The notes below the pieces were generated by a model that searched no databases, was not told the DNA's origin, and was given only the letters and a program-made list of their open reading frames with translations. From Candidatus Iainarchaeum sp. (GTDB taxonomy: Archaea; Iainarchaeota; Iainarchaeia; Iainarchaeales; 0-14-0-20-30-16), in NCBI GenBank assembly GCA_028710695.1, contig JAQTTP010000004.1, positions 57,102 through 89,101 on the forward strand: 32,000 bases of DNA, given 5' to 3'. Shown here in pieces: positions 4,327-29,548 of the stretch (the stretch's first letter is position 1; each line of letters begins with the position of its first letter). Made by a program: the position numbers and the translations under genes.

Positions 4327-4431
4327 ACTATAATTAGAACGATAAGGTTTATATAGTTCGTTATATTATATAAATAGTGAACTTTCTGCTCTTTTAGCGG
4401 AGCATAAATAGATATATTAATCAGTCTTGTT

Positions 4432-4438
4432 GGAGGGG
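4432..4438 (+). promoter_or_regulatory. Shine-Dalgarno site (GGAGGGG) for the giant surface-protein gene
   Basis: GGAGGGG lies 6 nt upstream of the GTG at 4445. It sits inside the ORF-track extension that begins at the TTG at 4427, which argues that 4445 is the real start. Confidence 0.5.
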
Positions 4439-4444
4439 AATATT

Positions 4445-7400: not shown

Positions 7401-9547
7401 CAAGAGAAATGGGATACATCCAAGATTGGGAAAATGGTGGTTTTGACCATAATATTTCAAATACAAGTTCTTGGAACCTGCCTACTTTTTGTGATGGTAA
7501 TAACTTTGAAACCGGAGATATAACTTATGGTTACTTCTACTATCCTGGGCAAGGAAGTGGTGATTTCAATTATGCCGCTTTAGTGGATCTTACTGATAAC
7601 GAGGTGTTTATTGACTTAGACCAAGATTGTAACTTTGTTGATGATAATTTCAGTATTACTCCAAATGACAAAAATATAATTTCCGCTTTGATTGACGGAA
7701 ATGGAAACGCGCCAATGATAACTAATGTAACCCTTACTGGAGTAAAATATATGGAAGTTACTGGTGATATTGTTGTGGCCAGACAAACAACTAATAATTG
7801 GGCCGGAGAATATGACGTAGATAGAAATATCATAATTCCAATAAATATAAGTGATATTTCTGGAAACTATTTGCAAAATGTAAGTGTAACAGTAAATAAA
7901 GTAAAAAAGATAGATTTCTTGAACAAACAGATGGAAACTCTTTCAAGTGGATATACTGTATATAATGATAATAATACAGATCCATACGGAATGGTATTCT
8001 TGAAGATGAATTTAGAGGAAACTGGAGAATACCAATTGGAATTAGTAATTGAAGATGCAAATGGAAATAAAGAAAAACTAATGCCTTGGGAAGGACCAAT
8101 ATTCCAAGTTAAGAAGTTTTCTAGTAAGTCTGGATTTGTAAGGGCAGCAAGATACGATGAAAATGTATTGACTATAGACTTGAATGAAAATCCATATACC
8201 TATTGGCAAGGTGGGAATGTTAATCAAGCGGAATACCTAGGAATCTTTAGAGAATCAGAAAGAGATTATGATCTAGATAGTGATGGTAGTAAAGACAAGA
8301 ACTATTACTTCTATTATCCGTATCTAGATGGTGTTTATGTTGTTGATGATGACCTAAACAATACAGAGTATCCTAATGAAGTAAATGGTCTAAGACCAGA
8401 GAATCTGTCTACTTTGTGGCCAACATGTTTGGGTGATTATAATGCAACTCGTCAACAAAATGATTGTAATACAGATTCTATAATGGTATCAAGTATAACC
8501 GAAGATACAGTTCTGACTACAAACTTAATGTCACATCAAAACAAGAATTGGTCTTTTGAGGATTATAATGTAGACGACTTTGGTAGACCTCTTTTGTGGA
8601 CTACTATGGCTAACCCATTGGATACTAATATTATGGATAACACGTTTGGAACAAATAGTGGAAATCCAGGTCCTGGTGTTATGGATGGTAGTAGAGCAAT
8701 GAGAATGGATGGAAATATATGGACTACACTTCAAAATCCTGTATTTGTGTATGCAAACCAAAATGATACTATGGATATAAACATTTGTGCTGTGTCTCAA
8801 ACAGGAGGTCTTTTGAAGACAAGATTCTATTATTTGCCTGGTGGGGCATCTGATGGAAATTATTATTATAATTTTGACACAAATGTATGGGATGCAAATA
8901 TTGCAGATCCTACTTCTGGAGACTATGACTTCAATATGACTGTTGCTGGTCCTGCATGGCAATGTTTCACAACAGACATAAATACAGGGGCAATGGAGAT
9001 GATTAATATTGTTATTGCTGGAGATGATAATTCAAGCCATGTATTTTTGGTTGATGCTGTTCAAATGGATCTTAATTTGATAGGAAGAACAGTGAACATA
9101 TATAATAAAACCAATTATAGGGCGCCATCAACAGCAATAATTGCTGATTCAGATTTGACTGCTTCAGATTATGCAATGTGGGCAAATTCAGATCTGAATG
9201 GTACAACTGGTAGTGTAAATCACTACTATGAAGTATCATTTACTGATAGATTAAATCAGGATGTTAATATAGTTGATGCAAATGTATCCTCAATGTTAAT
9301 TAAGAAAAACACTTGTGCCACAACCTGGGGGAATGACGATATGACTCTGAAAGGAAAATATTCTGGAAGCAGAATTGGAAGCACAGACTTTTGGGCATTT
9401 AACTTTGGAGACTTGGGTACAGGTATTGGAGATACTAACTGCTTGAGATATGAAGTAAGAACAGATATTTCCGCATTAGTTGGGGCTTCAACTTATAAAG
9501 ACTCTACTTGGAGTAGCTTCTACATAAGTAATAACGAGGGGAGTTAG
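4445..9547 (+). CDS. Giant secreted surface protein (about 1,700 aa): repeated beta-sandwich modules plus a C-terminal jelly-roll (CBM4_9-like) region; no membrane anchor
   Basis: Single uninterrupted ORF (track: 4427..9547; the SD-supported GTG is at 4445). N-terminal hydrophobic signal (AYFIGLLGIFFVLSASCLF). N/D/T/G-rich composition with many N-x-S/T sequons. Recurrent G-x-Y...F-x-V-K-x-F module ends. The C-terminus (...SSFYISNNEGS) has no hydrophobic segment. Confidence 0.85.
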   Translation: MKAYFIGLLGIFFVLSASCLFSASMWYKFDDGWATDGNAILKVFVDTGTDGVANTGVSVATTLTLDSNDCAYAATTAAYADGNYANFNLDLNCDGVLDANGADLNIVISTTTPALSKDFEFYLPGFKDMDINFDVGSLDSVVDIQTDYNLVFQPIFYDENGTVDSSFGGQFKVYLYDPSGDFVDSYDANADNNIIIPVTDFNTEPGMYKIMVGNVTADENTAGYKTFVFNVKSFNLIAYVQNTDDESKGTYGTGEDLELVVFATDINNTGITLSKIYYKADAATSFTTVSSPSKKNTISLSDFSAGQHNVKIIGTYGDYNQEMNLGFYVTAYAPEFKLKKNDNAGTKERFSGVYAPAGTVTFLFGINDLTTGQPEDINTVAACRLLLDGLKYVEAGKKNETEVSVSDNNISYNSTEKLCEVSMVAPSTEDTYLYELDLNDNYSDTYDAVNLDSSEQKLTTQQYVMFLDPIDAESAIDADTGQIDKKADKFEFFDENIAYYLNVTNLGGGSASDLNVESVNSLYIVHDGTSTALSASDYDYNYDTKLLIIDKDATALDGVAGSFELQAIFDTNSNTGELIDVFGAGKKKTFKVYVDLNMDSHDGPPYVTPDENVVLSVTVKNSSNQTVPYVTISLARVYDVENMEEVSLGSYSAVTDASGIGYLNIGSDINTGMYEVTIDVNDGTNTDEGHGFFMVKNFFAFGFPGDYQQGGAFLENAYLGMDENIDIATFVFSGTGAGFGGTEFAATDTYSIPTGTAKLFYETDDSVGMKLIYVDIVDLDTDANWTKGSVIDPGRMVRITSDVSLTPGFYEAVYDVNWNGTIDTAIAPFAIQGFGLQVCNYNAGGSVSCGESMTGGGQDLKGAPDSNVLWVLNGASSGDVSLTISLVDMKTFSEVSGADDLNFFLDNGINYDGNQMNDINFNFSSNAQDNNSYGDFNVLVYIPPGTDLGEYELRFDFLKAGVHTIYSRSITVKQFIISMISDQSGSREMGYIQDWENGGFDHNISNTSSWNLPTFCDGNNFETGDITYGYFYYPGQGSGDFNYAALVDLTDNEVFIDLDQDCNFVDDNFSITPNDKNIISALIDGNGNAPMITNVTLTGVKYMEVTGDIVVARQTTNNWAGEYDVDRNIIIPINISDISGNYLQNVSVTVNKVKKIDFLNKQMETLSSGYTVYNDNNTDPYGMVFLKMNLEETGEYQLELVIEDANGNKEKLMPWEGPIFQVKKFSSKSGFVRAARYDENVLTIDLNENPYTYWQGGNVNQAEYLGIFRESERDYDLDSDGSKDKNYYFYYPYLDGVYVVDDDLNNTEYPNEVNGLRPENLSTLWPTCLGDYNATRQQNDCNTDSIMVSSITEDTVLTTNLMSHQNKNWSFEDYNVDDFGRPLLWTTMANPLDTNIMDNTFGTNSGNPGPGVMDGSRAMRMDGNIWTTLQNPVFVYANQNDTMDINICAVSQTGGLLKTRFYYLPGGASDGNYYYNFDTNVWDANIADPTSGDYDFNMTVAGPAWQCFTTDINTGAMEMINIVIAGDDNSSHVFLVDAVQMDLNLIGRTVNIYNKTNYRAPSTAIIADSDLTASDYAMWANSDLNGTTGSVNHYYEVSFTDRLNQDVNIVDANVSSMLIKKNTCATTWGNDDMTLKGKYSGSRIGSTDFWAFNFGDLGTGIGDTNCLRYEVRTDISALVGASTYKDSTWSSFYISNNEGS

Positions 9548-9559
9548 AGGTGATATGAA

Positions 9560-10840
9560 ATGAGATACTCAAATATAATTACAATGATTTTTGGAATTTT
9601 GTTATTGAGCACTTTTGGATTTGCCCTATCTGTCTCTTTATCTTTTAGTGACTCAAGTATGGGTGTTGGAGATTCTACAACTCTTACAGCAACAGTAAGC
9701 GGAACAGATACGGGAGTAACTGCTGAATTAAGCGGAACAGGAATAACAAGCGAGGCATTAACAACAAGCCCTGTAGCAGTTTCAGGAATATCAACACAAT
9801 CTCTAGGAAGTATATCTGATACCACAACTACAAGTTGGATAATACAAGGAAATGCTGTAGGAACATATTCTCTATTAGTGACTATTTCAGGAGATTCTGC
9901 AAGCACAACTGGAACTACAACTTTAGTAGTAAATAATCCTGCAAATATAATTTTAGATGACTATAGTTGTAACTCTGGAGATTCAAATTTATCAAGTGGA
10001 AATACATATACAGTAAGTTATACTTTGAGAAATTCTGGGGAGGAAAGTGCAACAATAACAAGTACGCCTACTTTAACTTATTTTTCAGTATATTCTAGAT
10101 CTAATGCGGATACTAGTAATCAAACTACAATAACCGGTGGAGAGACTAAATCAATAGCATTTACATTTACTCCATCTTTTGGAACAACAACAAGAACTGG
10201 AGCAATAAGTCTTGCTCTAACTGGTGCAAATGATCCAGATGACATTTCTTGTGGAAGTGTAACTCTGTATGTTGCACCTTCTACAGGGGGGACTACTGGG
10301 ACTAATGATGATGGTGATACAGATGGTGGTGTAGTAAGTGATGATGAAGACGAAGAAGAAGAGGATGATGGTGTAGTCACAACTACAACAACAACAAAAA
10401 CAATAACTACGGATAAATTTACTCTTGTTTTGCCAGAGAATGTTTCTGCAGGAGAAACAAAGGAATTAAAAATAATTGATTTAAACGGGCTTCCATTAAA
10501 GGATGTAAATATTCAGATAACAGATCCTAAGGGTGAAATTACATATAATTTGACTGATGCAAATGGTTTGTTAGATTATGAGTTCCTTTATGACGGAAAC
10601 TATGCAATAAAAGTTTACTACGGTGGAAAGACCTATAACTACACAATAACAGTAAAGCCAATAACTGCGGGTACTGAAGACACGAATGTAGGTACAACAG
10701 GTACAACAGAAGGCAAGAGTACTTGGTGGATTTGGGTAATAGTTGTAGTTGGTATTATTGCAGTAATAGTTGTTGCAGATTTATTGCACACATATTATGG
10801 AAATAAGCCTAAGAAAGGCGGACTAGCAAGATTGAAATAA
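9560..10840 (+). CDS. C-terminally anchored surface protein (signal peptide, CARDB-like domain, acidic tract, poly-Thr stalk, Ig/CarboxypepD_reg-like domain, TM anchor)
   Basis: GAGGTGAT Shine-Dalgarno site at 9547-9554, 12 nt after the giant gene's stop. Signal peptide MRYSNIITMIFGILLLSTFGFALS. Also SYTLRNSGEESATI (CARDB-like), DDEDEEEEDD, TTTTTTKTITT, and DLNGLPLKDVNIQITDPKGE...TDANGLLDYEFLYDGNYAIKV. C-terminal TM segment WWIWVIVVVGIIAVIVVADLL followed by a basic tail. Confidence 0.8.
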   Translation: MRYSNIITMIFGILLLSTFGFALSVSLSFSDSSMGVGDSTTLTATVSGTDTGVTAELSGTGITSEALTTSPVAVSGISTQSLGSISDTTTTSWIIQGNAVGTYSLLVTISGDSASTTGTTTLVVNNPANIILDDYSCNSGDSNLSSGNTYTVSYTLRNSGEESATITSTPTLTYFSVYSRSNADTSNQTTITGGETKSIAFTFTPSFGTTTRTGAISLALTGANDPDDISCGSVTLYVAPSTGGTTGTNDDGDTDGGVVSDDEDEEEEDDGVVTTTTTTKTITTDKFTLVLPENVSAGETKELKIIDLNGLPLKDVNIQITDPKGEITYNLTDANGLLDYEFLYDGNYAIKVYYGGKTYNYTITVKPITAGTEDTNVGTTGTTEGKSTWWIWVIVVVGIIAVIVVADLLHTYYGNKPKKGGLARLK

Positions 10841-10880: not shown

Positions 10881-11624
10881 ATGTCTCATTTTAATACTCA
10901 TATAAAATTTGTAGAATCTCTGAATTCAAATCTTGATAAAAGATATTTGTTTTCGGGGTCCGTATTCCCTGATATTGGGCTATATGTTGATTTTTCAAAA
11001 ATAAACAAAGAAAAAGACTTTACTCATTTTTTACATTTTCCAGAGCCAAGAAGTGAAAATGGAATAAAGTTTGGAAAAGCTTTAATGGAAAAAGCAAAAA
11101 CAAAGAAGGAATTGTCTTTTGCTGTTGGGGTTTATAGTCATTTCTTTTTGGATCAAACTGTTCATTCTTATATTATGAAAAATAATTTGCCCATGGCTGA
11201 GCACATAATGCTTGAGTTTTTTAGGGCACATAATGATTTTTTAAAAAGAGTTAAAAAATTATATTTGCCAAAAGAATTTTGTGTGTCTGTGTTTGAAGAA
11301 ACATTCCCTACAGATAAAGAATATGCTATTCAGATCAGAGAAGTTGGTTGGTTGAAGTTGTTTAAATTTAGATTTATTAATGATTATCTTTTGCGGCATT
11401 TAATAAAAACAAATTATGGAGAAAAACAAAAAAAATTGTGGCTTGTAAAATTAGTTTTTTCTTTTTTTAGGGCAGGGTATAAGAAAAAAGAGGGTGAGGA
11501 CTTGTATTCTTATCTTTATCCTTCACTGATTCTTAAAAAAGTACATTTAAGTAATATGGATAGAATTATTGCAAAAACCCAAAAAGAATTTTTAAAAGAT
11601 CTGGTAGTTAATTGGAATTTGTGA
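10881..11624 (+). CDS. Hypothetical protein, possibly a zinc-dependent phospholipase C-like (PF00882-like) metal hydrolase
   Basis: 247-aa ORF with no signal peptide. N-terminal MSHFNTH, GSVFPDIG, FTHFLHF and GVYSHFFLDQTVHSYI resemble the His/Asp metal-ligand pattern of the PLC-like family. This is weak, motif-level evidence only. Confidence 0.4.
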   Translation: MSHFNTHIKFVESLNSNLDKRYLFSGSVFPDIGLYVDFSKINKEKDFTHFLHFPEPRSENGIKFGKALMEKAKTKKELSFAVGVYSHFFLDQTVHSYIMKNNLPMAEHIMLEFFRAHNDFLKRVKKLYLPKEFCVSVFEETFPTDKEYAIQIREVGWLKLFKFRFINDYLLRHLIKTNYGEKQKKLWLVKLVFSFFRAGYKKKEGEDLYSYLYPSLILKKVHLSNMDRIIAKTQKEFLKDLVVNWNL

Positions 11625-15221: not shown

Positions 15222-17876
15222 ATGAAGAAGATTCTTTTATTACTATTTTGTTTGATTTTTATTGCAAGTGTTGGTTTTTCCGAAACCGTTTTGTCAGGGG
15301 TGTTGAATTCTAAGCTTGATCTTGTTTCTGGAGGGGTTTATACTGTTGAGGGGGATATGTATATCCGGGCTGCAGGGCAATTTTCTATGGCTGCAAATCA
15401 AATTGGCGTGGAATTTAGGTGTCTTCCAGGAATAACAATACATGTTGAGTCAGACTTTACTGGGAATTATTTATTTGATATAAAAGGGGCTAATTTCCAT
15501 ATTGATAATTGTGTAATTGATTTTGGATTGGATAATAAAACTGCATTTTACTATGATACAGCAAGCAAAGCAAATATAACTAACACAACCATAAATAATG
15601 CGTCTGTTGCAATAAGATTGCATAAAATTGCGGATGTATCAACGATTTCTAACTTGTTTTTAGAAAACGTGACAACTGGGATATATGCTACCTCGCGATT
15701 TTCTGATCAAATTCGTGCAAATATAACGACTAATGGCTTAAGAGGCTCTAATGTAGATTATTATTTTAATTTTTCTGGAAATGTTATTTATCAAACTGGC
15801 TTATTTTTGAATATTACTGATTTATCAGTTACAGATTTTACAAAAATGGGGTTTACTTCTATTAACACCCCAACCTATACAATAAATATAGACCAAATAA
15901 ATAGCACAAGTTTGATTGATTTAACTGGATCTTTGTTTAAAGAATTGGATCTTGCAAACAGCTCTATAAATCAACTAAAAGTTACAAATAATTCTGTTAC
16001 TGATAGTGTTAAAATAGACATTTCGGATACTATTATAGATTCTTGTGGAGACTATTGTATTTATCTGGATGCAAAAGTGTTCCCTTTAACTCTTACTAAT
16101 GTTTATTTTGATTCTGGTGATTATGGGGTTAAGACTGGTAGCACAAATACTAAAGAGATATATTTTTTGTCTACAAATTCAATTTACTCCGAAATTGATA
16201 ATGCTTTGTCTTTTCGCCAAAAAACAATGACTTTTCAATCAACTGGTGATAATTATGGTGGAGGAAATGTAATTTTAGAAAATATTTCCACCCCCGAAAA
16301 TGTGGCCATTAATTCTGCAACAGGATTAGGTAATCTGACAGTAGTTAACTCTGGTGGGGCTTTAGCGGTAATAAATTCAGAATTTAGTCCTGAAAAGGGG
16401 CTATTATTATCTACTTGTAATGCCAGTAGTTTAATTGGTTTGAATAATGTTATTTTTTCTACAGATCAAGAAATAAAGGACTTTGTTGAAGGATTTTTTT
16501 CTGATGATTCTTGTTATCCTTATTTGTTGTCTGCAGGTAACACAAAAATAAATACTGATAAGTTTTGGTCTTTTAATAAATCTGCAGGTAGTGATAATCC
16601 GGATGTTACTGGTGTAATAACTGATGCTGATGCGCCAGATTTTTCAGCAATACTTGCATATGATTATCCATTATCAATTACTGGTGTAACTGCGGGATAT
16701 GCTAGATTTGACAGCTCTTCAGATGAAGATGAATTTAGTTTAGAAGGTGTTTCTTTTATTGATTTATATAATAATAGTACAAATTTAACAATTCTGAGAA
16801 GTGAAATTGAAACTATAGAATTAATTGACACAGAGGGAATAATTAAAGCAAACACAATTGGGCATTTAAGTTTAGATGGTTTAAGTGATGGTCTAAAAAT
16901 ATCAAATAACGAAATTTATTATCCTTTAGAATGTGATTCATTATCAAACACAAGTGATGTTTCATATTATGATGCAAAGGATTTGACTGCAAAAAACATA
17001 AAAGGAGTAAATGGAACAGGTGGAAACTGGTGGGCTGGATTTTCTGATAGCTCAACAAAATGTAAAAATGAAATTGATGATGCATTCTGTGATGCAAAAT
17101 ATACTTTTACTTGTAATGGAAAAACATATGATGATTTGTATCCTTTGACTTTGCTTGGGCCTACAGTAGTTGTTGATGAAGATAATGAGAATAATGATAG
17201 TTCGTCAAATTCCTCTTCAAATTCTAACTCTTGTACAAAGAACTCTGATTGTTTGGGAACAGAATCTTGTATTAGTGGGCAATGTAAAGACTTAAACTGT
17301 AAAGTTGGACAAGTAATCTCTAACTATGCTTGTGTGGATTGTTTAACTGATGCTCAATGCCCTGCAGATTCAAAGTGTAGCTTGAATAAATGTGAAAAAG
17401 TTACTTGTAAAGCTGATGAGAAAGTTGAAAGCCACAAATGTGTAAAGCTTTCAGGGAATGCAGGTTTAGGAACAGGTACAGATAAAGATATTGATGTAGA
17501 TGCTGGTGTTGATAAGGATGTTGATTCGGATGTTAATGCTCCCGGCGGCCAAATAGAAGAGCCAGGATTTTTCCAGAAATTGTCTGATTGGATAAAAGGT
17601 CATGCACTGGTATTGGGAATTGTTGGCGGAATAGTAGTTCTTTTGATCATAATTCTGATTGTAGTTCTTGTAGTGCTACATAACAAGAAAAAGAAAGCTT
17701 TGTTGGGCGAAGAAGAACCAAAAGAAGAATCAGTAGAGGCCGAACCAGAAGAGAAGGAACCTAAGGAAGAAAAAGAGCCTCAAAAGGAAGAGGAAGAACC
17801 AAAGGCTGAAGGCGAAGATAAAAGCCCTGAAGATGAAGATAGTGATAACTTAGATACCTCTGGATGGAGTAAATAA
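15222..17876 (+). CDS. Type I membrane surface protein: signal peptide, parallel beta-helix (PbH1-like) region, duplicated 5-Cys module, TM anchor, acidic P/E/K-rich cytoplasmic tail
   Basis: GAGGGG Shine-Dalgarno site. Signal peptide MKKILLLLFCLIFIASVGFS. Repetitive N-x-[ST]/I/V-rich beta-helix-like segments (NITNTTINNASVAIRL..., LENVTTGIYATS...). C-x5-C-x5-C-x4-C-x4-C-K occurs twice (17232-17303 and 17340-17411). TM segment LVLGIVGGIVVLLIIILIVVLVVL, then NKKKK and an EEPKEE-type tail. Confidence 0.8.
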   Translation: MKKILLLLFCLIFIASVGFSETVLSGVLNSKLDLVSGGVYTVEGDMYIRAAGQFSMAANQIGVEFRCLPGITIHVESDFTGNYLFDIKGANFHIDNCVIDFGLDNKTAFYYDTASKANITNTTINNASVAIRLHKIADVSTISNLFLENVTTGIYATSRFSDQIRANITTNGLRGSNVDYYFNFSGNVIYQTGLFLNITDLSVTDFTKMGFTSINTPTYTINIDQINSTSLIDLTGSLFKELDLANSSINQLKVTNNSVTDSVKIDISDTIIDSCGDYCIYLDAKVFPLTLTNVYFDSGDYGVKTGSTNTKEIYFLSTNSIYSEIDNALSFRQKTMTFQSTGDNYGGGNVILENISTPENVAINSATGLGNLTVVNSGGALAVINSEFSPEKGLLLSTCNASSLIGLNNVIFSTDQEIKDFVEGFFSDDSCYPYLLSAGNTKINTDKFWSFNKSAGSDNPDVTGVITDADAPDFSAILAYDYPLSITGVTAGYARFDSSSDEDEFSLEGVSFIDLYNNSTNLTILRSEIETIELIDTEGIIKANTIGHLSLDGLSDGLKISNNEIYYPLECDSLSNTSDVSYYDAKDLTAKNIKGVNGTGGNWWAGFSDSSTKCKNEIDDAFCDAKYTFTCNGKTYDDLYPLTLLGPTVVVDEDNENNDSSSNSSSNSNSCTKNSDCLGTESCISGQCKDLNCKVGQVISNYACVDCLTDAQCPADSKCSLNKCEKVTCKADEKVESHKCVKLSGNAGLGTGTDKDIDVDAGVDKDVDSDVNAPGGQIEEPGFFQKLSDWIKGHALVLGIVGGIVVLLIIILIVVLVVLHNKKKKALLGEEEPKEESVEAEPEEKEPKEEKEPQKEEEEPKAEGEDKSPEDEDSDNLDTSGWSK

Positions 17877-17924: not shown

Positions 17925-18040
17925 TGTAAACGGCCATAGCGGCAGGGAAACACCCGGTCCCATTCCGAACCCGGAAGTTAAGCTTGCCAGCGGCAGTACG
18001 TACTGCGTAGACGCGCGGGAACAGTTGCACGCTGTTTACA
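17925..18040 (+). rRNA. 5S ribosomal RNA (archaeal type), stand-alone
   Basis: GGCCATAGCGGCAGGGAAACACCCGGTCCCATTCCGAACCCGGAAGTTAAGC matches the conserved 5S core. Terminal helix I forms between TGTAAACGGC (17925-17934) and GCTGTTTACA (18031-18040). The segment is GC-rich against an AT-rich background. Confidence 0.9.
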
Positions 18041-21858: not shown

Positions 21859-23016
21859 GTGATATTTGTGGGAAAGTGGAAGCCAGAGTTGTGGACAACA
21901 TATAGGGGAAATAATACATACCCAATCTATAACTGGTTCTATTTTACTGAAGCTTATTCAAGAGGGATTGTAAATAAGTACATAAAGAAGTACGAGATTA
22001 AAGGAAAAGTTCTTGATCCTTTCTGTGGAACAGGAACTACTTTGCTTGTTGCAAAAGAAAATGGCCTCAAAGCTACGGGATATGACCTTTCTAAATTAAT
22101 GGCTTTGGTAAGTAAAGCAAAAACACAAGAGTATGATATTGAAAAACTAGAAAGCCAAGTTGTAGAGTTTTTTGGTTTGGAAAAAAAGAAACAAGAGGTT
22201 AAAGTTCCAGATTGGATAAAGCAATATTTCCATAAAGAAGTGCTTGATTCTCTATTGGAATTAAAAGAAAGAATTAATACTTATAATACAGAATACAAGG
22301 AATTCTTCCTATTGGTCCTTATGCGAACTTTGGATACAGTATCTAAAGCTAAGAAGGTTGGAAAGTCTCTGCAGAAGAGGGTTGTACCGATTTTCAATGT
22401 TTATGCTGTTTATGAGAAGTTGGCAAAAGCAATGATAAAGGATTTGAAGAGAGCAGAACGTAAGAAATTGTTTAGTGGGGCTGCTGAGGTTTACAATAAT
22501 TCAATGTATGAAATCCCCGAAAATAAAAAGTATGATTTGATTATTACTAGCCCGCCTTACTTGAACAAAACAGAATATACTAAAAGATTTGGGATTGAAC
22601 TTTGGTTCTTGGGTGAAGAAACCTATTTGCAGGGTTTAGGGAATGAAAAAGAGCAGAAGCAGAACAAAGAGTGTTTATTTTATACCACTTACTTTGCAGA
22701 TATCTTGGACAAGATCCGGGATGGTTCCGAGCACAAGATGGTAAATTATAGTGTTGATAATTATTTCTCAGGGCTTGAAGCTTTCTTTAAGAAAAGTTAT
22801 TCCTTGCTAAATAAAGGTGGGCTTTTGGTAGTGGTTATTGCTGGCGGCTGTTTTAAGAACTATGCTGTTGATATTTACGATTATGTTTGCAAGCTTTCTG
22901 ATAATTTAGGCTTTAAGTTCGTTGAGAGCGAAGTAAATAGAGAGCTAATTTGTCATAAGAATAGAACTCAAAAGATCGGAAAAGTAAAAGAGTTTACAAT
23001 TGTGCTGAAAAAATAA
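21859..23016 (+). CDS. Amino-methyltransferase (N6-adenine/N4-cytosine type, SPPY catalytic motif); no partner nuclease, so DNA versus RNA substrate is unresolved
   Basis: Motif I DPFCGTGTT (22015-22041) precedes motif IV SPPY (22549-22560) by about 170 aa. GTG start 3 nt after the trm5 stop. Confidence 0.7.
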   Translation: MIFVGKWKPELWTTYRGNNTYPIYNWFYFTEAYSRGIVNKYIKKYEIKGKVLDPFCGTGTTLLVAKENGLKATGYDLSKLMALVSKAKTQEYDIEKLESQVVEFFGLEKKKQEVKVPDWIKQYFHKEVLDSLLELKERINTYNTEYKEFFLLVLMRTLDTVSKAKKVGKSLQKRVVPIFNVYAVYEKLAKAMIKDLKRAERKKLFSGAAEVYNNSMYEIPENKKYDLIITSPPYLNKTEYTKRFGIELWFLGEETYLQGLGNEKEQKQNKECLFYTTYFADILDKIRDGSEHKMVNYSVDNYFSGLEAFFKKSYSLLNKGGLLVVVIAGGCFKNYAVDIYDYVCKLSDNLGFKFVESEVNRELICHKNRTQKIGKVKEFTIVLKK

Positions 23017-23822: not shown

Positions 23823-25505
23823 ATGGATATATTTAAGATAGTAGTGACGACAATTGTGGCTTTAGTTATAATTGCCTTGATTTATACCTTCTTTATAGCT
23901 CCGAAGCCGGTTCCTGAAGAAGAATTAGCAAATAAACTGCTTTTGGCTTATAATAATCCAGGAACTTTTGTAAAAGGAGAAGTAACCTTATCTGAAACAT
24001 TAAACTACTACCAAATAAAGGACCATTTGCCTTCACAGCTTGAAATTGTGTATAATTATTATTCTTTAGTTCCAGATTTGAACATAATAACCTTATCTCC
24101 TGTTCCAAGTATTGATTTGTATAAAAAGTTGTCTATAAAGCCCCAGAAAAACAAAGATTACAAGTTTTCAACCATTTGTTATCCTTCTTTCTTGAGTTTT
24201 GACGAGCAAAGTGGGGGGGAAATGTACTGTTTGATAATATTTGGGCTTGAGAAAGATGACTCTAAAGCTCCAACTGTGGACTTTTCGATGGAAAATACAA
24301 TTTATGATTATAATCTATTTGAAAATTATTCTTTACAAGCAAAAGACTTTTTTAATTTAGATACCAAGAAAGAACTATATTTATTAGTAAACGACAGCCC
24401 AGAATACATAGAAACCTTTGATATTGGAGACCTTTACAACAACAAAGACTTTTTTACAGGTATTGATTTGAACGCACAAGGAAAAACAGAAGTGTCTTTT
24501 GCTTTTGAGAATGTTGGAAACTATTATGCTCTTTTGTATTATTCCTGTCCTGAGCTAGTTCAAAATCTGGGTCAAATAAGAGATAACATAATTACTAATT
24601 TTCCTTTGTGTAATCTTTATACACAAGACCTGGTTTTAAAAGTAAAATCAGATTATGGGTCTTTATCTAAAACCTGTGTTGCAACAACAGCATTGGGTGA
24701 GAATGAATATAATTTTTCTGAAGGGGTTTGTATTAAGAAATTTGGCTGTAGCAACTGCTTAGCGCCATCTATGTGTGCAGAGGCCTGGCATAAGAAAGAC
24801 AACAAAGAATATATTTCTTATAAGCAAGATGTTGCTTTGAGTAATGAGGTAATGTCTTATGATGAGTGTGTTGGTGGAACTAGCTCAAATAATAGTTCTT
24901 TAATTAATGTGCCAACCACTCCGCCAGCTACAAATCTAAATCTTGAAATAGATTCCTCTTTTTTGAATAAAGTGCAAAAGTTTGGTGGAAAAAGAAATGG
25001 ATATAACTTTATTGTGATTCATGATGGTGGAACTTGGGGTACCTCAACTTCAGGGCAAGCAGTAAATAGTGTTATAAATATGTGGAACAACGGAAACACG
25101 TCTACTCATTTTTATATCTCTTGTGAAGGAAAGATATTTGAGTTTTTGGACCCCGTCAATGTGGCTTGGCATGCGGGCTGTAATGATGGATTTATAAAAA
25201 ATGTAAATGCTTATTCAATTGGAATTGATTTGAGAAATTGTGAGAAGTTTACTTCTGGGCATTATACTTCAGAACAAATGCAAAGTTTAAGTAGTCTTTT
25301 AAATTCACTGTCTTCTCAATATGGTATTCCCCTTTCAGACAAATCAGTAATTGGCCATTTTGAAGTTGGATGTCACGATGATCCTTATACTGACTTCTCC
25401 TGGACTTCCTTGCCTGGAATTACAGTAAACCACAGAACAAGTTCCTATTATTATAATAAAGGAAATCAAGAAGCATCGGCTTGGGTTGCACAGATGTTTT
25501 CATAA
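23823..25505 (+). CDS. Membrane-anchored N-acetylmuramoyl-L-alanine amidase (Amidase_2/PGRP fold) with a ~350-aa uncharacterised middle region
   Basis: N-terminal TM segment IVVTTIVALVIIALIYTFFIA. The C-terminal domain (about nt 24990-25400) reads YNFIVIHDGG ... STHFYISCEGKIFEFLDPVNVAWHAGCN ... NAYSIGIDL ... VIGHFEVGCHDDPYTDFSW. This is collinear with the AmpD/T7-lysozyme pattern and keeps the H/H/D zinc ligands. Confidence 0.85.
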   Translation: MDIFKIVVTTIVALVIIALIYTFFIAPKPVPEEELANKLLLAYNNPGTFVKGEVTLSETLNYYQIKDHLPSQLEIVYNYYSLVPDLNIITLSPVPSIDLYKKLSIKPQKNKDYKFSTICYPSFLSFDEQSGGEMYCLIIFGLEKDDSKAPTVDFSMENTIYDYNLFENYSLQAKDFFNLDTKKELYLLVNDSPEYIETFDIGDLYNNKDFFTGIDLNAQGKTEVSFAFENVGNYYALLYYSCPELVQNLGQIRDNIITNFPLCNLYTQDLVLKVKSDYGSLSKTCVATTALGENEYNFSEGVCIKKFGCSNCLAPSMCAEAWHKKDNKEYISYKQDVALSNEVMSYDECVGGTSSNNSSLINVPTTPPATNLNLEIDSSFLNKVQKFGGKRNGYNFIVIHDGGTWGTSTSGQAVNSVINMWNNGNTSTHFYISCEGKIFEFLDPVNVAWHAGCNDGFIKNVNAYSIGIDLRNCEKFTSGHYTSEQMQSLSSLLNSLSSQYGIPLSDKSVIGHFEVGCHDDPYTDFSWTSLPGITVNHRTSSYYYNKGNQEASAWVAQMFS

Positions 25506-25554: not shown

Positions 25555-26169
25555 TTGAAGGTGGATGTTTTGCATATTGTTGAAAAGGCATTAACTCGTT
25601 TCTTAATAAAACTTGTTTTTTGTGTTTTACTAATCTTGTCTTTATTGTTTTTGGGATTCTTGCCTACCTTCTGGATACTTGCTGGTTTATTTGTGCTTGT
25701 ATTGATTTTAACAAAGGGAATAAAATTCCAAAAATTCCATGCAATTTTAACGAAGCTTGAAAGAGAATATGAAACTGGCTTTGCAGGAAAAGAAACTTTT
25801 ATTGTGTTGTTGGGTTTTATATTTTTCTTTTTAATTGTTTGGCTATTACAATACTTTATCGCATTCCCAGTAGAACAGATTGCAATAATTGGATTGATTC
25901 CATTAACATTTGGAAACAATTTAGTAAAGCCATTACAAACTTGGCTTAGAAACCATTTGCACTTTATTAGTCATAAGATGAGTATTGAGGGTTTTGTAAT
26001 TGCGACTTTGATTAATATCTTGGCATATTATCTTTTGTTGCCATACAATATAGTTGTTTTTATTTATCTTGCATTAATTGCAAGCCTGTTTGATATGATA
26101 CCATACATTGATAGCAACTATACAATACCTATATTTACATCATTAGCATTTTTGCTGTTTTTTATATAA
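25555..26169 (+). CDS. Polytopic membrane protein, possibly polyprenol (dolichol/phytol) kinase-like (COG0170-like)
   Basis: Hydrophobic throughout. LEREYETGFAGKETFIVLLG, HKMSIEGFV and a C-terminal DMIPYIDSNYTIPIF resemble dolichol/phytol kinase family motifs, but the central D-x-x-A-x-x-x-G motif is not evident (FGNNLVKPL). The start is uncertain (TTG at 25555). Confidence 0.45.
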   Translation: MKVDVLHIVEKALTRFLIKLVFCVLLILSLLFLGFLPTFWILAGLFVLVLILTKGIKFQKFHAILTKLEREYETGFAGKETFIVLLGFIFFFLIVWLLQYFIAFPVEQIAIIGLIPLTFGNNLVKPLQTWLRNHLHFISHKMSIEGFVIATLINILAYYLLLPYNIVVFIYLALIASLFDMIPYIDSNYTIPIFTSLAFLLFFI

Positions 26170-26189
26170 ACTATTTTATGTGATCAATT

Positions 26190-26882
26190 ATGCAAGGAAT
26201 CGTTTTATGTGGGGGCTATGGTACAAGGTTAAGACCCATTACTTATTCAGTCCCTAAACCTCTGGTAAGATTAGGCCAACATACTCTTCTTGATTATATT
26301 TTAATGAACTTAAATAATAGCAAGGTTGACAAAGTTTATCTTGCAGTATCATATCTAAAAGAAAAAATAATTTCTCATATAGACAAAGTAAAGGATAATT
26401 ACAATTTTGAAATTGATTTTTTATATGGTAATGATGGAGATGGAACTGCGGGTGCAATCCTAAATGCAAAAGATCTAATGGACGAAAACTTTTTTGTTAC
26501 TGTGGGGGATAATATAACAAATGTTAATTTTGATGATTTCTATAAACATCACGTAGAACATAAAGCTCTTGCTTCTATTGCTGCAAGAGAAGATGTAAAG
26601 AAATACGACTATGGTGTTTTAGATCTTGCAAACGATAAAGTAATTGGATTTAGAGAAAAACCAGAAACTAAGTTTATCATGAATACTGGAACCTTTTACT
26701 TTAAACACAAAATCTTTGATTATATTGAGCAAGGCGAAGATATATCTGGAGATGTTTTCCCAAAAATCTTGGCTAAAAATCAGCAGATCTATTGTTATAT
26801 GTCTGACTTCTTCTGGTATGATATTGGAACTCTAAAGAAATATAATTATTATAAAAGAAATTTGCATTACTTTAAGTTCTAA
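26190..26882 (+). CDS. Sugar-1-phosphate nucleotidyltransferase (NTP_transferase family)
   Basis: N-terminal GIVLCGGYGTRLRPITYSVPKPLV (the G-x-G-T-R-L-x-P-x-T signature); about 230 aa. Confidence 0.85.
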   Translation: MQGIVLCGGYGTRLRPITYSVPKPLVRLGQHTLLDYILMNLNNSKVDKVYLAVSYLKEKIISHIDKVKDNYNFEIDFLYGNDGDGTAGAILNAKDLMDENFFVTVGDNITNVNFDDFYKHHVEHKALASIAAREDVKKYDYGVLDLANDKVIGFREKPETKFIMNTGTFYFKHKIFDYIEQGEDISGDVFPKILAKNQQIYCYMSDFFWYDIGTLKKYNYYKRNLHYFKF

Positions 26883-26891
26883 AAGCAAGCA

Positions 26892-29315
26892 TTAAGAAGT
26901 AGCTAATTCACTCGGTGCTAGATTCTGTGCAATAGTCGAGGGGTTGCTTGGCCAATACTTTGCAGTATCGAATCCTTTTAATAAGCTGTTTCCTGAAAAT
27001 GGACTTATGGCTAAATTATTTCCTGCGTTTACAATTATGAAATTCTTTGGAAATGAATTTGTATTTTTTTTGTCAATAGAGTATTGTGTTCTGTTTGATA
27101 GTGTTCCAATAAGTACTTGTTCTACTCCTTCTACTTGTGAAAGATAATATACATGTGTGTGGCCTGCAAAGTAGGTTGCGCCAGCACTTTTTAATGCAGA
27201 AATTATTTTATCTCTATTATATTGAACATAAGACTTTGCATATGTAACATCTGATAGCGGATAATGTGCAAATACCAACACATTACTGTAACCCTTGTCT
27301 GTGGCATTATTTAACTCTGAAATCAGCCAATCAGCATCTAATTGACCTCCATTGCCTGAGCCAACAGCATACCAGATGATGAATCTGTTATTGTTGTATG
27401 TAAAAGCATAATACTTTGGAAATGTTCCTGTGAAATTAAGGTTTGAACTATTGCCTTTTTCTAACCCCGCAATTATGGAATCTTTTTTTGGACTCCAAAA
27501 ATTATTATATTGTTGATAATCGTGGTTTCCAACTACCGGCAAGAAAAGTAAATTTGTTTTGCTTAAGCTGTTGGATAGCACAGCAAAGTTGTCTTTTCCT
27601 TGCTGTATTGCGGCTTGTTCATCTGTTGAAACTCCGGATTCTCCTTTCACACTTTCTATTAAATCTCCAAGTCCGATTACAAAAGAGACATTATTGCTCT
27701 TTGCAAGAGACATTGCTTTTTCGAGATATTCTGTGTTTGTTTTGCTTGTAGTCGTTATATGCGTATCAGAAACTACTGCAAATGAGAAGCTTCCTGCAGA
27801 GCTGTTTGTTTTTTTGTTTTTATCTAATTCAGTTTTAAAAAAAGTATTTAACATTTTTTCTACTTGGCATAAAATGTTTCCAGAAACTGTACCCATTTCA
27901 CAAAGCGATACTTGCTTTACAGTAGTGGTGGTTGTTTTTGTTTTTGTAGTTGTAGTAGTTGTTGATGTAGTAGTTGTGCCTGTTTTTTTGAATATTAAAA
28001 TCGCGGTTGGAACTTCTCTTTGTGATTTTCCATCATCTTTGTAACCCCAATAATAAATATTTTTTTCTGGAGCTATTAAAGTTGAACTTCCTCCTCCATC
28101 TAAGTTAATTATTGATTTACATTTAGAATCAAAAGTTGTTGGATATGTTGCTCCTGCTTTGTTGAAAACAGCAAGCAGAAGTTTGTTGTCATTAGTAACA
28201 CAAGCATAAGTTGCAGAATGTGATCTATTGCTACAATAGTTATTTCCAAGATCACATTGCTTTGTTCCATTATACTTTAGTGCTGCACTTTGTAGTGCAT
28301 AATCTGGTTTGCTTGTAGGATATTTTTGTTTATATTCTGTGTAGTTAAGGATTTCAGGAATATTATTATTGATCACCAAAAAGTTATCTGGAAAATGTGG
28401 TGGATTCATTAAATGACAGTCCCATTCTTGATTTCCTAAATAAGAATATTTTTCTTGTTTGTTTTCAACTACAAGCCCAAGCGGGACATTAATCTCATCT
28501 GGTTTTGAGCAATCATATCCTGCAGACTTATCATTTACATTAAAGAAGGATGCATTTACTCCAATTACTGCCCCTGATTTTTCAACCATCTCTTGAACAG
28601 TTGAAGTTAAGCTTCCAGTGATGCTTTTTGCGGTAACTACTTTTATTGTATATTGACTTGGATCTATTTCTACTATGTGAGCTTCTTTGCCATTGTATGT
28701 TGCGTTTGATAAAGAGTATGTGCTAGAAACTGTTTGTGACCCGTTTGTCCATTTAGTGAATTCAACACTTTCGCTTATAGGTTTCAATGTTTTTAAGTCT
28801 TGCATAATCCTTTGATAATTTGCATTTTCTTGTGAAACTAAATTATTTTGTGTTAGCCATCTTGCAACGAATGCACCAGTCCTATGTTTTCCCCACCAAC
28901 AATGAACATAGACATCGTTCTTTGCAGAATCTAACCAGCTGAATGCTTTTGTAATTTCTGAATTGTATTTCTGGTTTTTTTCCATTATCACCGAACCAAG
29001 ATTTATGAATGCATAGTCAAAACCCTCATCTTTTAAAATTGTTAAATAACTCTTGCCTAAACTAGTGGTTGTTGAAGTACATTCTCCACCTAAAACAATT
29101 ATTTTATTTACTCCTTTGCTCTTTAGGGAGTCAAGAGTTTGTTTTAATACTGTGTAGTCGCAGACTTTGTATTCTGCACTTTTTCCTGGATGTCCCCCAG
29201 TATAAAAACTAGATTTTGTATTATTGTAATGTTGTAAGTTATAAGCATCTGCAAATGACAGAGGGACTATTATTACTGTGAAAAGCAGCAATAAAAAAAT
29301 TACCTTTTTATACAT
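26892..29315 (-). CDS. Secreted tri-domain enzyme: PTP/DSP-like phosphatase + phosphodiester glycosidase (NAGPA/DUF2233-like) + calcineurin-like metallophosphoesterase
   Basis: Signal peptide MYKKVIFLLLLFTVIIVPLSFADA. PTP loop HCWWGKHRTG (nt 28875-28904). GVNASFFN (about 28535-28575) and INLDGGGSST (about 28084-28110). Poly-Thr linker (27921-27983). Metallophosphoesterase motifs FAVVSDTHI, GLGDLIE, VVGNHD and GHTHVY (about 26990-27790). Confidence 0.85.
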   Translation of the reverse strand: MYKKVIFLLLLFTVIIVPLSFADAYNLQHYNNTKSSFYTGGHPGKSAEYKVCDYTVLKQTLDSLKSKGVNKIIVLGGECTSTTTSLGKSYLTILKDEGFDYAFINLGSVIMEKNQKYNSEITKAFSWLDSAKNDVYVHCWWGKHRTGAFVARWLTQNNLVSQENANYQRIMQDLKTLKPISESVEFTKWTNGSQTVSSTYSLSNATYNGKEAHIVEIDPSQYTIKVVTAKSITGSLTSTVQEMVEKSGAVIGVNASFFNVNDKSAGYDCSKPDEINVPLGLVVENKQEKYSYLGNQEWDCHLMNPPHFPDNFLVINNNIPEILNYTEYKQKYPTSKPDYALQSAALKYNGTKQCDLGNNYCSNRSHSATYACVTNDNKLLLAVFNKAGATYPTTFDSKCKSIINLDGGGSSTLIAPEKNIYYWGYKDDGKSQREVPTAILIFKKTGTTTTSTTTTTTKTKTTTTTVKQVSLCEMGTVSGNILCQVEKMLNTFFKTELDKNKKTNSSAGSFSFAVVSDTHITTTSKTNTEYLEKAMSLAKSNNVSFVIGLGDLIESVKGESGVSTDEQAAIQQGKDNFAVLSNSLSKTNLLFLPVVGNHDYQQYNNFWSPKKDSIIAGLEKGNSSNLNFTGTFPKYYAFTYNNNRFIIWYAVGSGNGGQLDADWLISELNNATDKGYSNVLVFAHYPLSDVTYAKSYVQYNRDKIISALKSAGATYFAGHTHVYYLSQVEGVEQVLIGTLSNRTQYSIDKKNTNSFPKNFIIVNAGNNLAISPFSGNSLLKGFDTAKYWPSNPSTIAQNLAPSELATS

Positions 29316-29396
29316 ATGCCTCTACCTACTATAAATATAGAGACGAGATTTATAAATATATAACTATCGAAATTTTTGAAGAGATGATCTTTGGTA

Positions 29397-29430: not shown

Positions 29431-29467
29431 CAATTTTGCCAACCTAGGATTTTGTTAAAATCCCGGT

Positions 29468-29541
29468 GACCCGGTGGCCTAATTGGATAAGGCACCAGCC
29501 TCCTAAGCTGGCGATTGCGAGTTCGAGTCCCGCCTGGGTCG
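29468..29541 (+). tRNA. tRNA-Arg (anticodon CCT), 74 nt, no encoded CCA, no intron
   Basis: Manual cloverleaf: acceptor GACCCGG/CTGGGTC (one G-U), D stem GCCT/AGGC, anticodon stem CCAGC/GCTGG with loop CTCCTAA, 5-nt variable loop, T arm GCGAG-TTCGAGT-CCCGC (one A-C mismatch), discriminator G. Confidence 0.88.
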
Positions 29542-29548
29542 TTCTATC

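Follow-up and report, generated by a model that had tools for sequence, protein, structure and literature searches.

A predicted secreted archaeal protein that joins a PTP-like phosphatase, a NAGPA-type phosphodiester glycosidase and a metallophosphoesterase

DPANN archaea are known to encode large extracellular murein-transglycosylase proteins (PMC8204110, PMC10936187), and archaeal peptidoglycan hydrolases that kill bacteria have been described (PMC12352652). Furthermore, extracellular calcineurin-like domains occur fused to NAGPA, a family of phosphodiester glycosidases, in bacterial surface proteins, with PhoD as a precedent for the cleavage of teichoic acid (bioRxiv 10.1101/2024.03.27.587046), and NAGPA also occurs joined to TelC, a lipid II phosphatase, in conflict systems of Bacillota (bioRxiv 10.1101/2025.01.14.632903). 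Here we describe a gene of Candidatus Iainarchaeum sp. (assembly GCA_028710695.1, contig JAQTTP010000004.1) that occupies positions 26892..29315, minus strand, of the 32,000-nucleotide stretch that we analysed (contig positions 57,102 to 89,101, hereafter the window) and whose product strings together a PTP-like Cys-based phosphatase domain, a NAGPA domain and a calcineurin-like metallophosphoesterase (MPE) domain. The single parts and the pairing of MPE with NAGPA belong to an already known theme; it is the triple architecture that is new, and we found this exact combination to be essentially unique and confined to one small DPANN clade.

The coding sequence is one unbroken open reading frame (ORF) with an ATG start, encoding 807 residues followed by a stop codon that lies within the coordinates given above. 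Its product matches NCBI MDD4983789.1 at 100%, where it is annotated only as a metallophosphoesterase of Candidatus ainarchaeum sp., a label most readily read as Candidatus Iainarchaeum (Iainarchaeota, DPANN/Nanobdellati). From the N-terminus onwards the protein comprises a signal peptide, the PTP-like domain, the NAGPA domain, a Thr-rich linker, a Cys-containing hinge and the MPE domain. The predicted Sec signal peptide (residues 1-24, window 29244..29315, minus strand like every part of this gene), which was recognised by eye, reads MYKK-VIFLLLLFTVIIVPLSF-ADA with the cut before Tyr; its hydrophobic core is 17 residues long, and it is kept in both orthologues described below (P0002 and P0003). 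The C-terminus is not hydrophobic and the protein has no membrane anchor, so that it is predicted to be secreted and either released or loosely bound to the surface. The linker TGTTTTSTTTTTTKTKTTTTT (residues 445-465, window 27921..27983), written in mixed ACN codons, differs in length and sequence between the orthologues. The hinge that follows is a conserved two-Cys segment, VKQVSLCEMG..ILCQVEKMLNTFF (residues 466-493, window 27837..27920), and it corresponds to the C-terminal tail of a natural two-domain variant. A first-pass annotation of this DNA, made from its letters and ORFs, had proposed an 807-residue signal-peptide protein with these three domains, and the ORF, the signal (again by eye) and all three assignments hold. 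The poly-Thr linker that it described is also present, although with 21 residues, 17 of them Thr, rather than 20.

To place this architecture among known proteins, we used a profile built from the three orthologues for an exhaustive HMMER search of 1.84 billion representatives of ~15 billion proteins, which returned 295 matches at E<=1e-3. Only P0002 (841 residues, 51-55% identical), encoded at a syntenic locus, matches end to end and is the sole other triple fusion. P0003 (490 residues, 75-78% identical) covers the PTP and NAGPA domains only, and all remaining matches cover a single domain or MPE together with NAGPA. No relatives beyond these two proteins were found in a scan of GTDB species representatives, and none were added by a scan of JGI metagenomes. 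The exhaustive search was needed because the family is too divergent for word-index homologue searches, in which the full-length query gave three matches and two domain segments gave nothing new; words from the poly-Thr tract are suspected of having crowded the candidates. A composite alignment of the full-length protein with domain fragments misaligned those of PTP and NAGPA with the MPE region and was discarded. The rarity claimed in the first pass is thus borne out, with the triple fusion found in 2 proteins of one small clade. Its wording of an unusual combination fits the triple fusion but not the pair of MPE and NAGPA, which recurs in DPANN and bacterial surface proteins.

P0002 comes from an independent assembly (GCA_964480435.1 and an ENA contig), where it is collinear with the window gene, has all three domains and keeps the same neighbours. 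The gene of P0003 (L003 420-1892; also L004 156-1616) is not cut by a contig end, and its product stops after ...EKMLNTFFNMKITNS (the conserved ...EKMLNTFF segment), which leaves 15 nt to the NTP_transferase gene that converges on it. Synteny holds across all three loci, with Nre, AP_endonuc_2, the fusion gene, NTP_transferase, a ~202-204-residue putative membrane protein and a ~350-residue Cys-rich membrane-anchored protein. In the window, the sugar-1-phosphate nucleotidylyltransferase (NTP_transferase) and a 204-residue hydrophobic protein, polytopic by eye and without a Pfam match, lie at 25555-26882 on the plus strand, tail to tail with the fusion gene, an arrangement kept in all three genomes. 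Because the MPE domain is found in P0002, the more distant orthologue, but not in the closer P0003, the simplest history would be an ancestral triple fusion from which the MPE domain was secondarily lost. The two-domain form indicates that PTP and NAGPA can stand alone and that the MPE domain is facultative.

The strongest match outside the orthologues is a secreted Woesearchaeota protein of 1,280 residues (P0004/P0152, E 1e-65) with the architecture MPE-SLT-NAGPA. The NAGPA domain of P0152 is 40% identical to that of the window protein, has the same six-Cys pattern and is its closest NAGPA relative outside the clade. MPE also occurs with two NAGPA domains in P0007 (Woesearchaeota), with NAGPA and SLT in P0008, with NAGPA, Glucosaminidase and C39_2 in P0009 (a KSB1 bacterium) and with GDSL and NAGPA in P0016, and the MPE and NAGPA pair was found again in P0121 and in the P0096 cluster (Cyclobacteriaceae).

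We scanned the 48 HMMER matches of at least 550 residues with Pfam, and 45 of them contain Metallophos. The partner domains in this set are Lipase_GDSL_2 (12 of the 48 proteins), NAGPA and SLT (8 each), Peptidase_M15_4 (7), Peptidase_C39_2 (5), Peptidase_M23 (3), and Glucosaminidase, Peptidase_M74, Amidase_2 and NlpC/P60 (2 each). Individual architectures include MPE-GDSL-M15_4-M23-NlpC/P60 (P0021), MPE-GDSL-M15_4-M23-C39_2 (P0036), MPE-GDSL-M15_4-M74 (P0031) and, in a Woesearchaeota protein of 2,519 residues, SLT-MPE (P0011); the proteins of this MPE subfamily with a named source are mostly from Woesearchaeota or Nanoarchaeota. These recurrent murein-hydrolase partners indicate that the MPE subfamily of the window protein is a standard part of multi-enzyme wall-dismantling proteins. 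In the literature that we found on DPANN murein-hydrolase proteins, the MPE and GDSL parts of these multi-enzyme giants seem not to have been discussed.

Like the window protein, the giants of Woesearchaeota and Nanoarchaeota (MBT4823688.1, which is P0152, MPE-SLT-NAGPA; PIN86129.1, which is P0007, MPE-NAGPA-NAGPA) are secreted DPANN proteins with the same MPE subfamily. They differ from it in having the reverse order, with MPE first and NAGPA later, in carrying SLT or other peptidoglycan hydrolase domains, in lacking a PTP-like domain and in being far larger (1,100-2,500 residues). Pfam and NCBIfam found neither SLT nor any other peptidoglycan hydrolase domain in the window protein, which sets it apart from the fam00969-like proteins of PMC8204110, with MPE and NAGPA modules common to both. 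The ShfP proteins also combine an extracellular calcineurin-like domain with other surface modules, and NAGPA fusion has been noted in that radiation, whose predicted targets are teichoic acids, extracellular DNA (eDNA) or lipid head groups (bioRxiv 10.1101/2024.03.27.587046). They come, however, from bacteria and abound in wall-binding domains such as Ig, LTD and SLH, and no PTP domain has been reported for them.

The MPE domain (residues 499-807, window 26895..27821) matches Metallophos PF00149 over residues 511-723 with 37.9 bits against a cut-off of 21.5 (E 3.4e-9). The full set of canonical metal motifs noted in the first pass was confirmed by alignment: the five motifs SDTH, GDLIE, GNHD, AHYP and GHTH supply every dimetal ligand (D517, H519, D551, N597, H684, H719 and H721), and H598 is present as well. 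Among solved structures, the MPE profile found the purple acid phosphatase/phytase 6git first (E 8e-22), followed by TRAP, SMPDL3A/B, Rv0805 and GpdQ. Membership of the purple acid phosphatase subfamily was considered and rejected, the Tyr of GDxxY being absent (GDLIE) and the first motif being SDTH, not DxG. The consensus of the subfamily is GDM(I/V)x, likewise without Tyr, and purple acid phosphatases are simply its best-scoring solved relatives. As for other libraries, the fusion protein had no defence-system match in PADLOC, generic exonuclease-type MPE matches only in PHROGs, and in NCBIfam a single sub-threshold match to the PolD small subunit, which is meaningless.

The NAGPA/DUF2233 domain (residues 205-445, window 27981..28703), which contains six Cys, matches PF09992 over residues 247-442 with 45.3 bits against a cut-off of 25 (E 1.4e-11), and a profile of 13 NAGPA sequences reaches the solved structures 5h3k, 3ohg, 6pky and 6pku with E-values from 1e-21 to 2e-18, in agreement with the initial assignment. 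Alignment places the DGGGS motif at D406-S410 (window 28086..28100), equivalent to human D286-S290, and R433, 27 residues past D406, at the position of human R316. Across the 13 aligned domains, the D, the first two G and the S of DGGGS are invariant or nearly so, the third G is kept in at least 70% only, and the Arg is found in most, not all. In human NAGPA, mutation of the D286-S290 motif or of the phosphate-binding R316 abolishes activity, and the enzyme cleaves the C1-O bond of N-acetylglucosamine (GlcNAc)-alpha-1-P diesters, leaving a phosphomonoester (PMC13474241). The window domain has in common with this 'uncovering enzyme' and with bacterial DUF2233 proteins (6pky, 6pku, 3ohg, 5h3k) the fold family, the DGGGS motif and the phosphate-binding Arg. 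It differs from them in an Ala (A368) in place of the Arg of the 'RT' motif, in an extra Cys-rich insertion and in the two phosphoesterases fused to it, and its substrate is certainly not the lysosomal enzyme glycans on which the uncovering enzyme acts. At the A368 site (residues 364-374, window 28194-28226, minus strand) the Woesearchaeota relative keeps Arg, and the nearby H366 is invariant.

The PTP-like domain (residues 25-190, window 28746..29243) was the weak point of the first reading. Every Pfam PTP/DSP family stays under its cut-off (PTP-NADK 23.6 against 27, DSPc 22.9 against 33.5, Tc-R-P 19.3 against 27), so that the assignment needed extra evidence. The P-loop HCWWGKHRTG (window 28875..28904), with catalytic C139 and R145, follows the signature HCx5R(S/T) as H138-C139-WWGKH-R145-T146-G147. 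The exhaustive search yielded two stand-alone secreted homologues of this domain, P0117 and P0146, which pass Pfam Tc-R-P (PF22785) at 50-58 bits, and the H, C, G, R, T and G of the P-loop are invariant in all five sequences (the three orthologues and these two). A profile built from the five found SsoPTP at E 4e-12 and then vaccinia H1, PTPMT1 and PFA-DSP1. Furthermore, an AlphaFold2 (AF2) model of the domain (pLDDT 81.5, pTM 0.83) shows strand 111-118 and then helix 122-135 around the P-loop, and the top Foldseek matches of this model in the PDB all have the Cys-PTP fold (E 1e-5 to 1e-4, TM 0.5-0.62), namely PRL-1, Cdc14, SsoPTP, PFA-DSP1, VHZ, Siw14 and DUF442. A full-length AF2 model from a three-sequence alignment had a pLDDT of 40.8, with ~22 in the NAGPA region, and was not used for fold searches.

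By profile, model and fold search, the domain is thus a Cys-based phosphatase of the PTP/DSP fold, as first annotated. Structure modelling, which had been proposed as a check of the active sites, recovered the PTP fold. Conservation of the general-acid Asp is lacking in the alignment. The small atypical Cys-phosphatases (SsoPTP 2i6i, PRL, PFA-DSP1/Siw14, Tc-R-P PF22785) resemble the window domain in fold, size and an HCxxGxxR(T)G P-loop; the window domain differs in being secreted and fused, in lacking a conserved general-acid Asp and in scoring below the Pfam cut-offs. The motifs quoted in the first pass were all located, HCWWGKHRTG at residues 138-147, GVNASFFN at 252-259 and NLDGGGSS at 404-411.

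Two genes away from the fusion gene, a 560-residue putative membrane-anchored protein is encoded at 23823..25505 on the plus strand and ends in an Amidase_2 (muramoyl-L-alanine amidase) domain (Pfam E 1.6e-18; PHROGs endolysin/amidase families). It starts with a hydrophobic helix, by eye a putative anchor, and a 351-residue Cys-rich domain, a part common to both related genomes (88% and 47% identity). The Amidase_2 domain is attached through an S/T/N/P-rich linker and is present in this genome only, the orthologues at L001 and L003 ending at residue ~351, which looks like the lineage-specific gain of a peptidoglycan amidase by the archaeon. Two surface proteins within 5.5 kb therefore each have an extra C-terminal hydrolase on a low-complexity linker.

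We hypothesize that the fusion protein is a secreted modular DPANN enzyme for phosphodiester-linked glycopolymers, most likely those of bacterial walls, and we consider this proposal about evenly poised between right and wrong. The secretion signal, domain identities, catalytic motifs, rarity and architectures of relatives were computed here, and what we infer is which substrate is attacked, in which order the domains act and to what purpose. Candidate substrates would be wall teichoic acids with their GlcNAc-1-P linkage units, sugar-1-phosphate polymers and capsules. In a possible first step, the NAGPA domain would cut the C1-O bond of an alpha-GlcNAc-1-phosphodiester, freeing the sugar or the attached polymer and leaving a phosphomonoester on the wall. 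The dimetal MPE domain would then hydrolyse polyol-phosphate or sugar-phosphate linkages, either as a phosphodiesterase or as a monoesterase, and the Cys-phosphatase would take off exposed phosphomonoesters or phosphoanhydride-type phosphates. The phosphate and sugars so released may serve an organism with little biosynthetic capacity, and the stripped wall would open peptidoglycan to murein hydrolases, for example the Amidase_2 protein two genes away. A functional analogy may be drawn with PhoD and GlpQ of Bacillus and Staphylococcus, secreted phosphodiesterases that free phosphate and glycerol phosphate from wall teichoic acid; they belong to different families or subfamilies, and the resemblance would be one of function. 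A glycopolymer-dismantling role had already been suggested in the first pass, and the wall as its target gains indirect support from the partners of the MPE/NAGPA relatives and from the Amidase_2 neighbour, but the label 'processive machine' has no evidence behind it.

Several observations weigh against this proposal. The substrate argument is one of guilt by association, and a Pfam scan found neither a peptidoglycan hydrolase nor a recognisable wall-binding domain in the window protein. The locus lies among housekeeping genes with conserved synteny and not in an obvious conflict island. The MPE domain is lost in the close relative P0003, so the three activities are not bound to work as an obligate unit. 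Those DPANN archaea whose hosts are known live on other archaea and not on bacteria. Human NAGPA removes terminal GlcNAc, and the GlcNAc of a linkage unit is substituted and would require a broader pocket.

The active sites add to these points. In the PTP-like domain, a general-acid Asp would be expected ~30 residues ahead of the catalytic Cys, but it is not conserved: Val takes the aligned position, in a loop whose alignment is uncertain. This loop reads IMEK, IMSK or IMDK in the three orthologues, as opposed to PMNAD/PMNDS in the two stand-alone homologues P0117 and P0146, which have the Asp. E112, the acidic residue closest to this position, is replaced by S or D in the orthologues. Members of the PTP superfamily without a general acid tend to prefer good leaving groups, phosphoanhydrides for instance, which may be a lead here. 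The 'R-T/S' motif of the NAGPA domain has A368 (SHSATYAC) in place of its Arg in the window protein and in both orthologues; 10 of the 13 aligned NAGPA domains keep this Arg, as do the 3ohg, 6pky and 5h3k alignments. Moreover, equivalents of E226, T227 and T260, which contact GlcNAc in the human enzyme, could not be placed in the window domain. With no conserved general-acid Asp, with A368 and with a dispensable MPE domain, the view that all active sites are intact is only partly true.

Next to the wall-directed proposal, we considered that the protein is a general extracellular phosphate scavenger, in which MPE and PTP free phosphate from any organophosphate (eDNA or RNA, nucleotides, phytate, phospholipid head groups), NAGPA merely adds sugar-phosphate diesters to the range, and no specific link to bacterial walls exists. 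The best structural matches of the MPE profile, which comprise purple acid phosphatases, phytase, TRAP, the nucleotide and lipid phosphodiesterases SMPDL3A/B, Rv0805 and GpdQ, would suit such a role, as would the inositol-pyrophosphate phosphatases PFA-DSP1 and Siw14 among the fold matches of the PTP domain, the view that DPANN genomes scavenge nutrients, and a fusion protein without wall-binding or peptidoglycan hydrolase domains. The closest MPE relatives are nevertheless overwhelmingly fused to murein hydrolases and not to nucleases or nutrient-binding domains, the Tyr ligand specific to purple acid phosphatases (GDxxY) is missing, with GDLIE in its place, and NAGPA chemistry is specific to sugar-1-phosphate diesters (PMC13474241). 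Collectively, these points make a general scavenger unlikely, although it deserves a place in the argument.

Alternatively, the targets may be surface glycoconjugates of archaea, belonging to the producer or to an archaeal host. The protein might then trim sugars held by phosphodiester bonds on S-layer or N-glycans, or recycle sugars carried on dolichol phosphate, as a maturation or remodelling step akin to the eukaryotic 'uncovering' step. The sugar-1-phosphate nucleotidylyltransferase gene that converges on the fusion gene and the gene of the ~202-204-residue putative membrane protein after it, both kept across three genomes, are consistent with this, and so are the housekeeping genes around the locus and the description, in the accounts available, of the DPANN archaea cultivated to date as episymbionts of archaea. 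The adjacency of the NTP_transferase gene is, however, not specific because the whole region is syntenic. The relatives of the MPE and NAGPA domains sit with domains specific for bacterial murein, and the muramoyl-L-alanine amidase gained nearby has no archaeal substrate outside pseudomurein producers. We regard a role on archaeal glycoconjugates as distinctly unlikely.

We also judge it improbable that the protein is an antibacterial effector that poisons wall synthesis by attacking lipid-linked wall precursors in the outer leaflet, in the manner of TelC-type lipid II phosphatase toxins. Under this scheme, NAGPA would cut GlcNAc off undecaprenyl-diphospho-GlcNAc-type carriers and the Cys-phosphatase would hydrolyse the leftover pyrophosphate. 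The nearest Pfam family of the PTP domain is Tc-R-P, a DSP-PTPase of polymorphic toxins, which the stand-alone homologues match at 50-58 bits and for which P0003 has a precomputed match; the PTP loop without a conserved general acid resembles phosphoanhydride phosphatases; and NAGPA-TelC fusions occur in Bacillota conflict systems (bioRxiv 10.1101/2025.01.14.632903). On the other hand, the substrate is wholly speculative, the protein lacks a domain for delivery or targeting and there is no immunity gene, its gene is kept in a housekeeping setting, and lipid carriers would be less accessible behind a thick Gram-positive wall or an outer membrane. A related long shot is that the fusion protein and the newly acquired amidase form a cross-domain weapon or feeding tool against bacteria, with the acid-less Cys-phosphatase acting on pyrophosphate-linked substrates, for example carriers of the undecaprenyl-diphospho-GlcNAc type or the phosphate that NAGPA cleavage leaves on N-acetylmuramic acid. 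To our knowledge, chemistry of this kind has not been described for any PTP-fold enzyme.

Finally, although the sequence comes from a metagenome-assembled genome and a close relative has two domains only, we find it scarcely credible that a chimeric assembly, or a sequencing error that fused adjacent genes, produced the three-domain ORF, as the frame is open through both linkers and the independent assembly (GCA_964480435.1, ENA contig) holds a collinear, full-length 841-residue orthologue with three domains and the same neighbours, which argues for a real gene and not a chance ORF.

Directly upstream of the ATG of the fusion gene, TATA-like boxes (TTTATA, ATATTTATAG) and GGTAGAGG form, by eye, a putative archaeal promoter (window 29328..29356, minus strand); a scan for sigma-70 promoters and terminators was uninformative, its model not being applicable to an archaeon. 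A tRNA-Arg(CCT) gene (29467-29542, plus strand) lies directly upstream on the opposite strand, so that the fusion gene looks like its own transcription unit. The window as a whole has ~33% G+C and contains the archaeal markers NOG1-type GTPase, DUF63, Nre_N/Nre_C, TYW2 and 5S rRNA. The 5S rRNA gene stands alone at 17926-18040 on the plus strand (92 bits), with no other rRNA gene adjoining in the window. An N6/N4 DNA methyltransferase (PF01555) at 21859-23016, plus strand, is conserved in L001 and L003 and has no obvious restriction partner in the window.

Further genes may also concern the cell envelope. A 247-residue protein encoded at 10881-11624 on the plus strand has a domain of Zn-dependent phospholipase C (PF00882, E 1.9e-9) and may be another envelope-directed hydrolase. 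Two large ORFs of 1,706 and 884 residues (4427-9547 and 15222-17876, plus strand) have no significant Pfam match, the latter showing weak sub-threshold matches (Protocadherin, Syndecan and others) at ~795-860, near its C-terminus. An adjacent 426-residue ORF (9560-10840) has a weak CARDB/Ig-like match, and all three may be DPANN surface proteins.

If the wall-directed proposal is true, DPANN archaea would carry, beyond murein hydrolases, a wider set of enzymes against phosphodiester-linked polymers of bacterial walls, comprising MPE, NAGPA, GDSL esterase and, here, a Cys-phosphatase, and the case for some DPANN lineages feeding on or attacking bacteria would be stronger. The widespread and functionally obscure bacterial and archaeal NAGPA/DUF2233 family would likewise gain a concrete physiological substrate, and compact enzymes of this kind could serve to strip teichoic acids or capsules. 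The two- and three-domain variants, together with the lineage-specific gain of an amidase, illustrate cleanly how domains are gained and lost as modules via low-complexity linkers. The DPANN-wide set of MPE, NAGPA and GDSL modules on murein hydrolases may in the end outweigh the fusion itself in interest.

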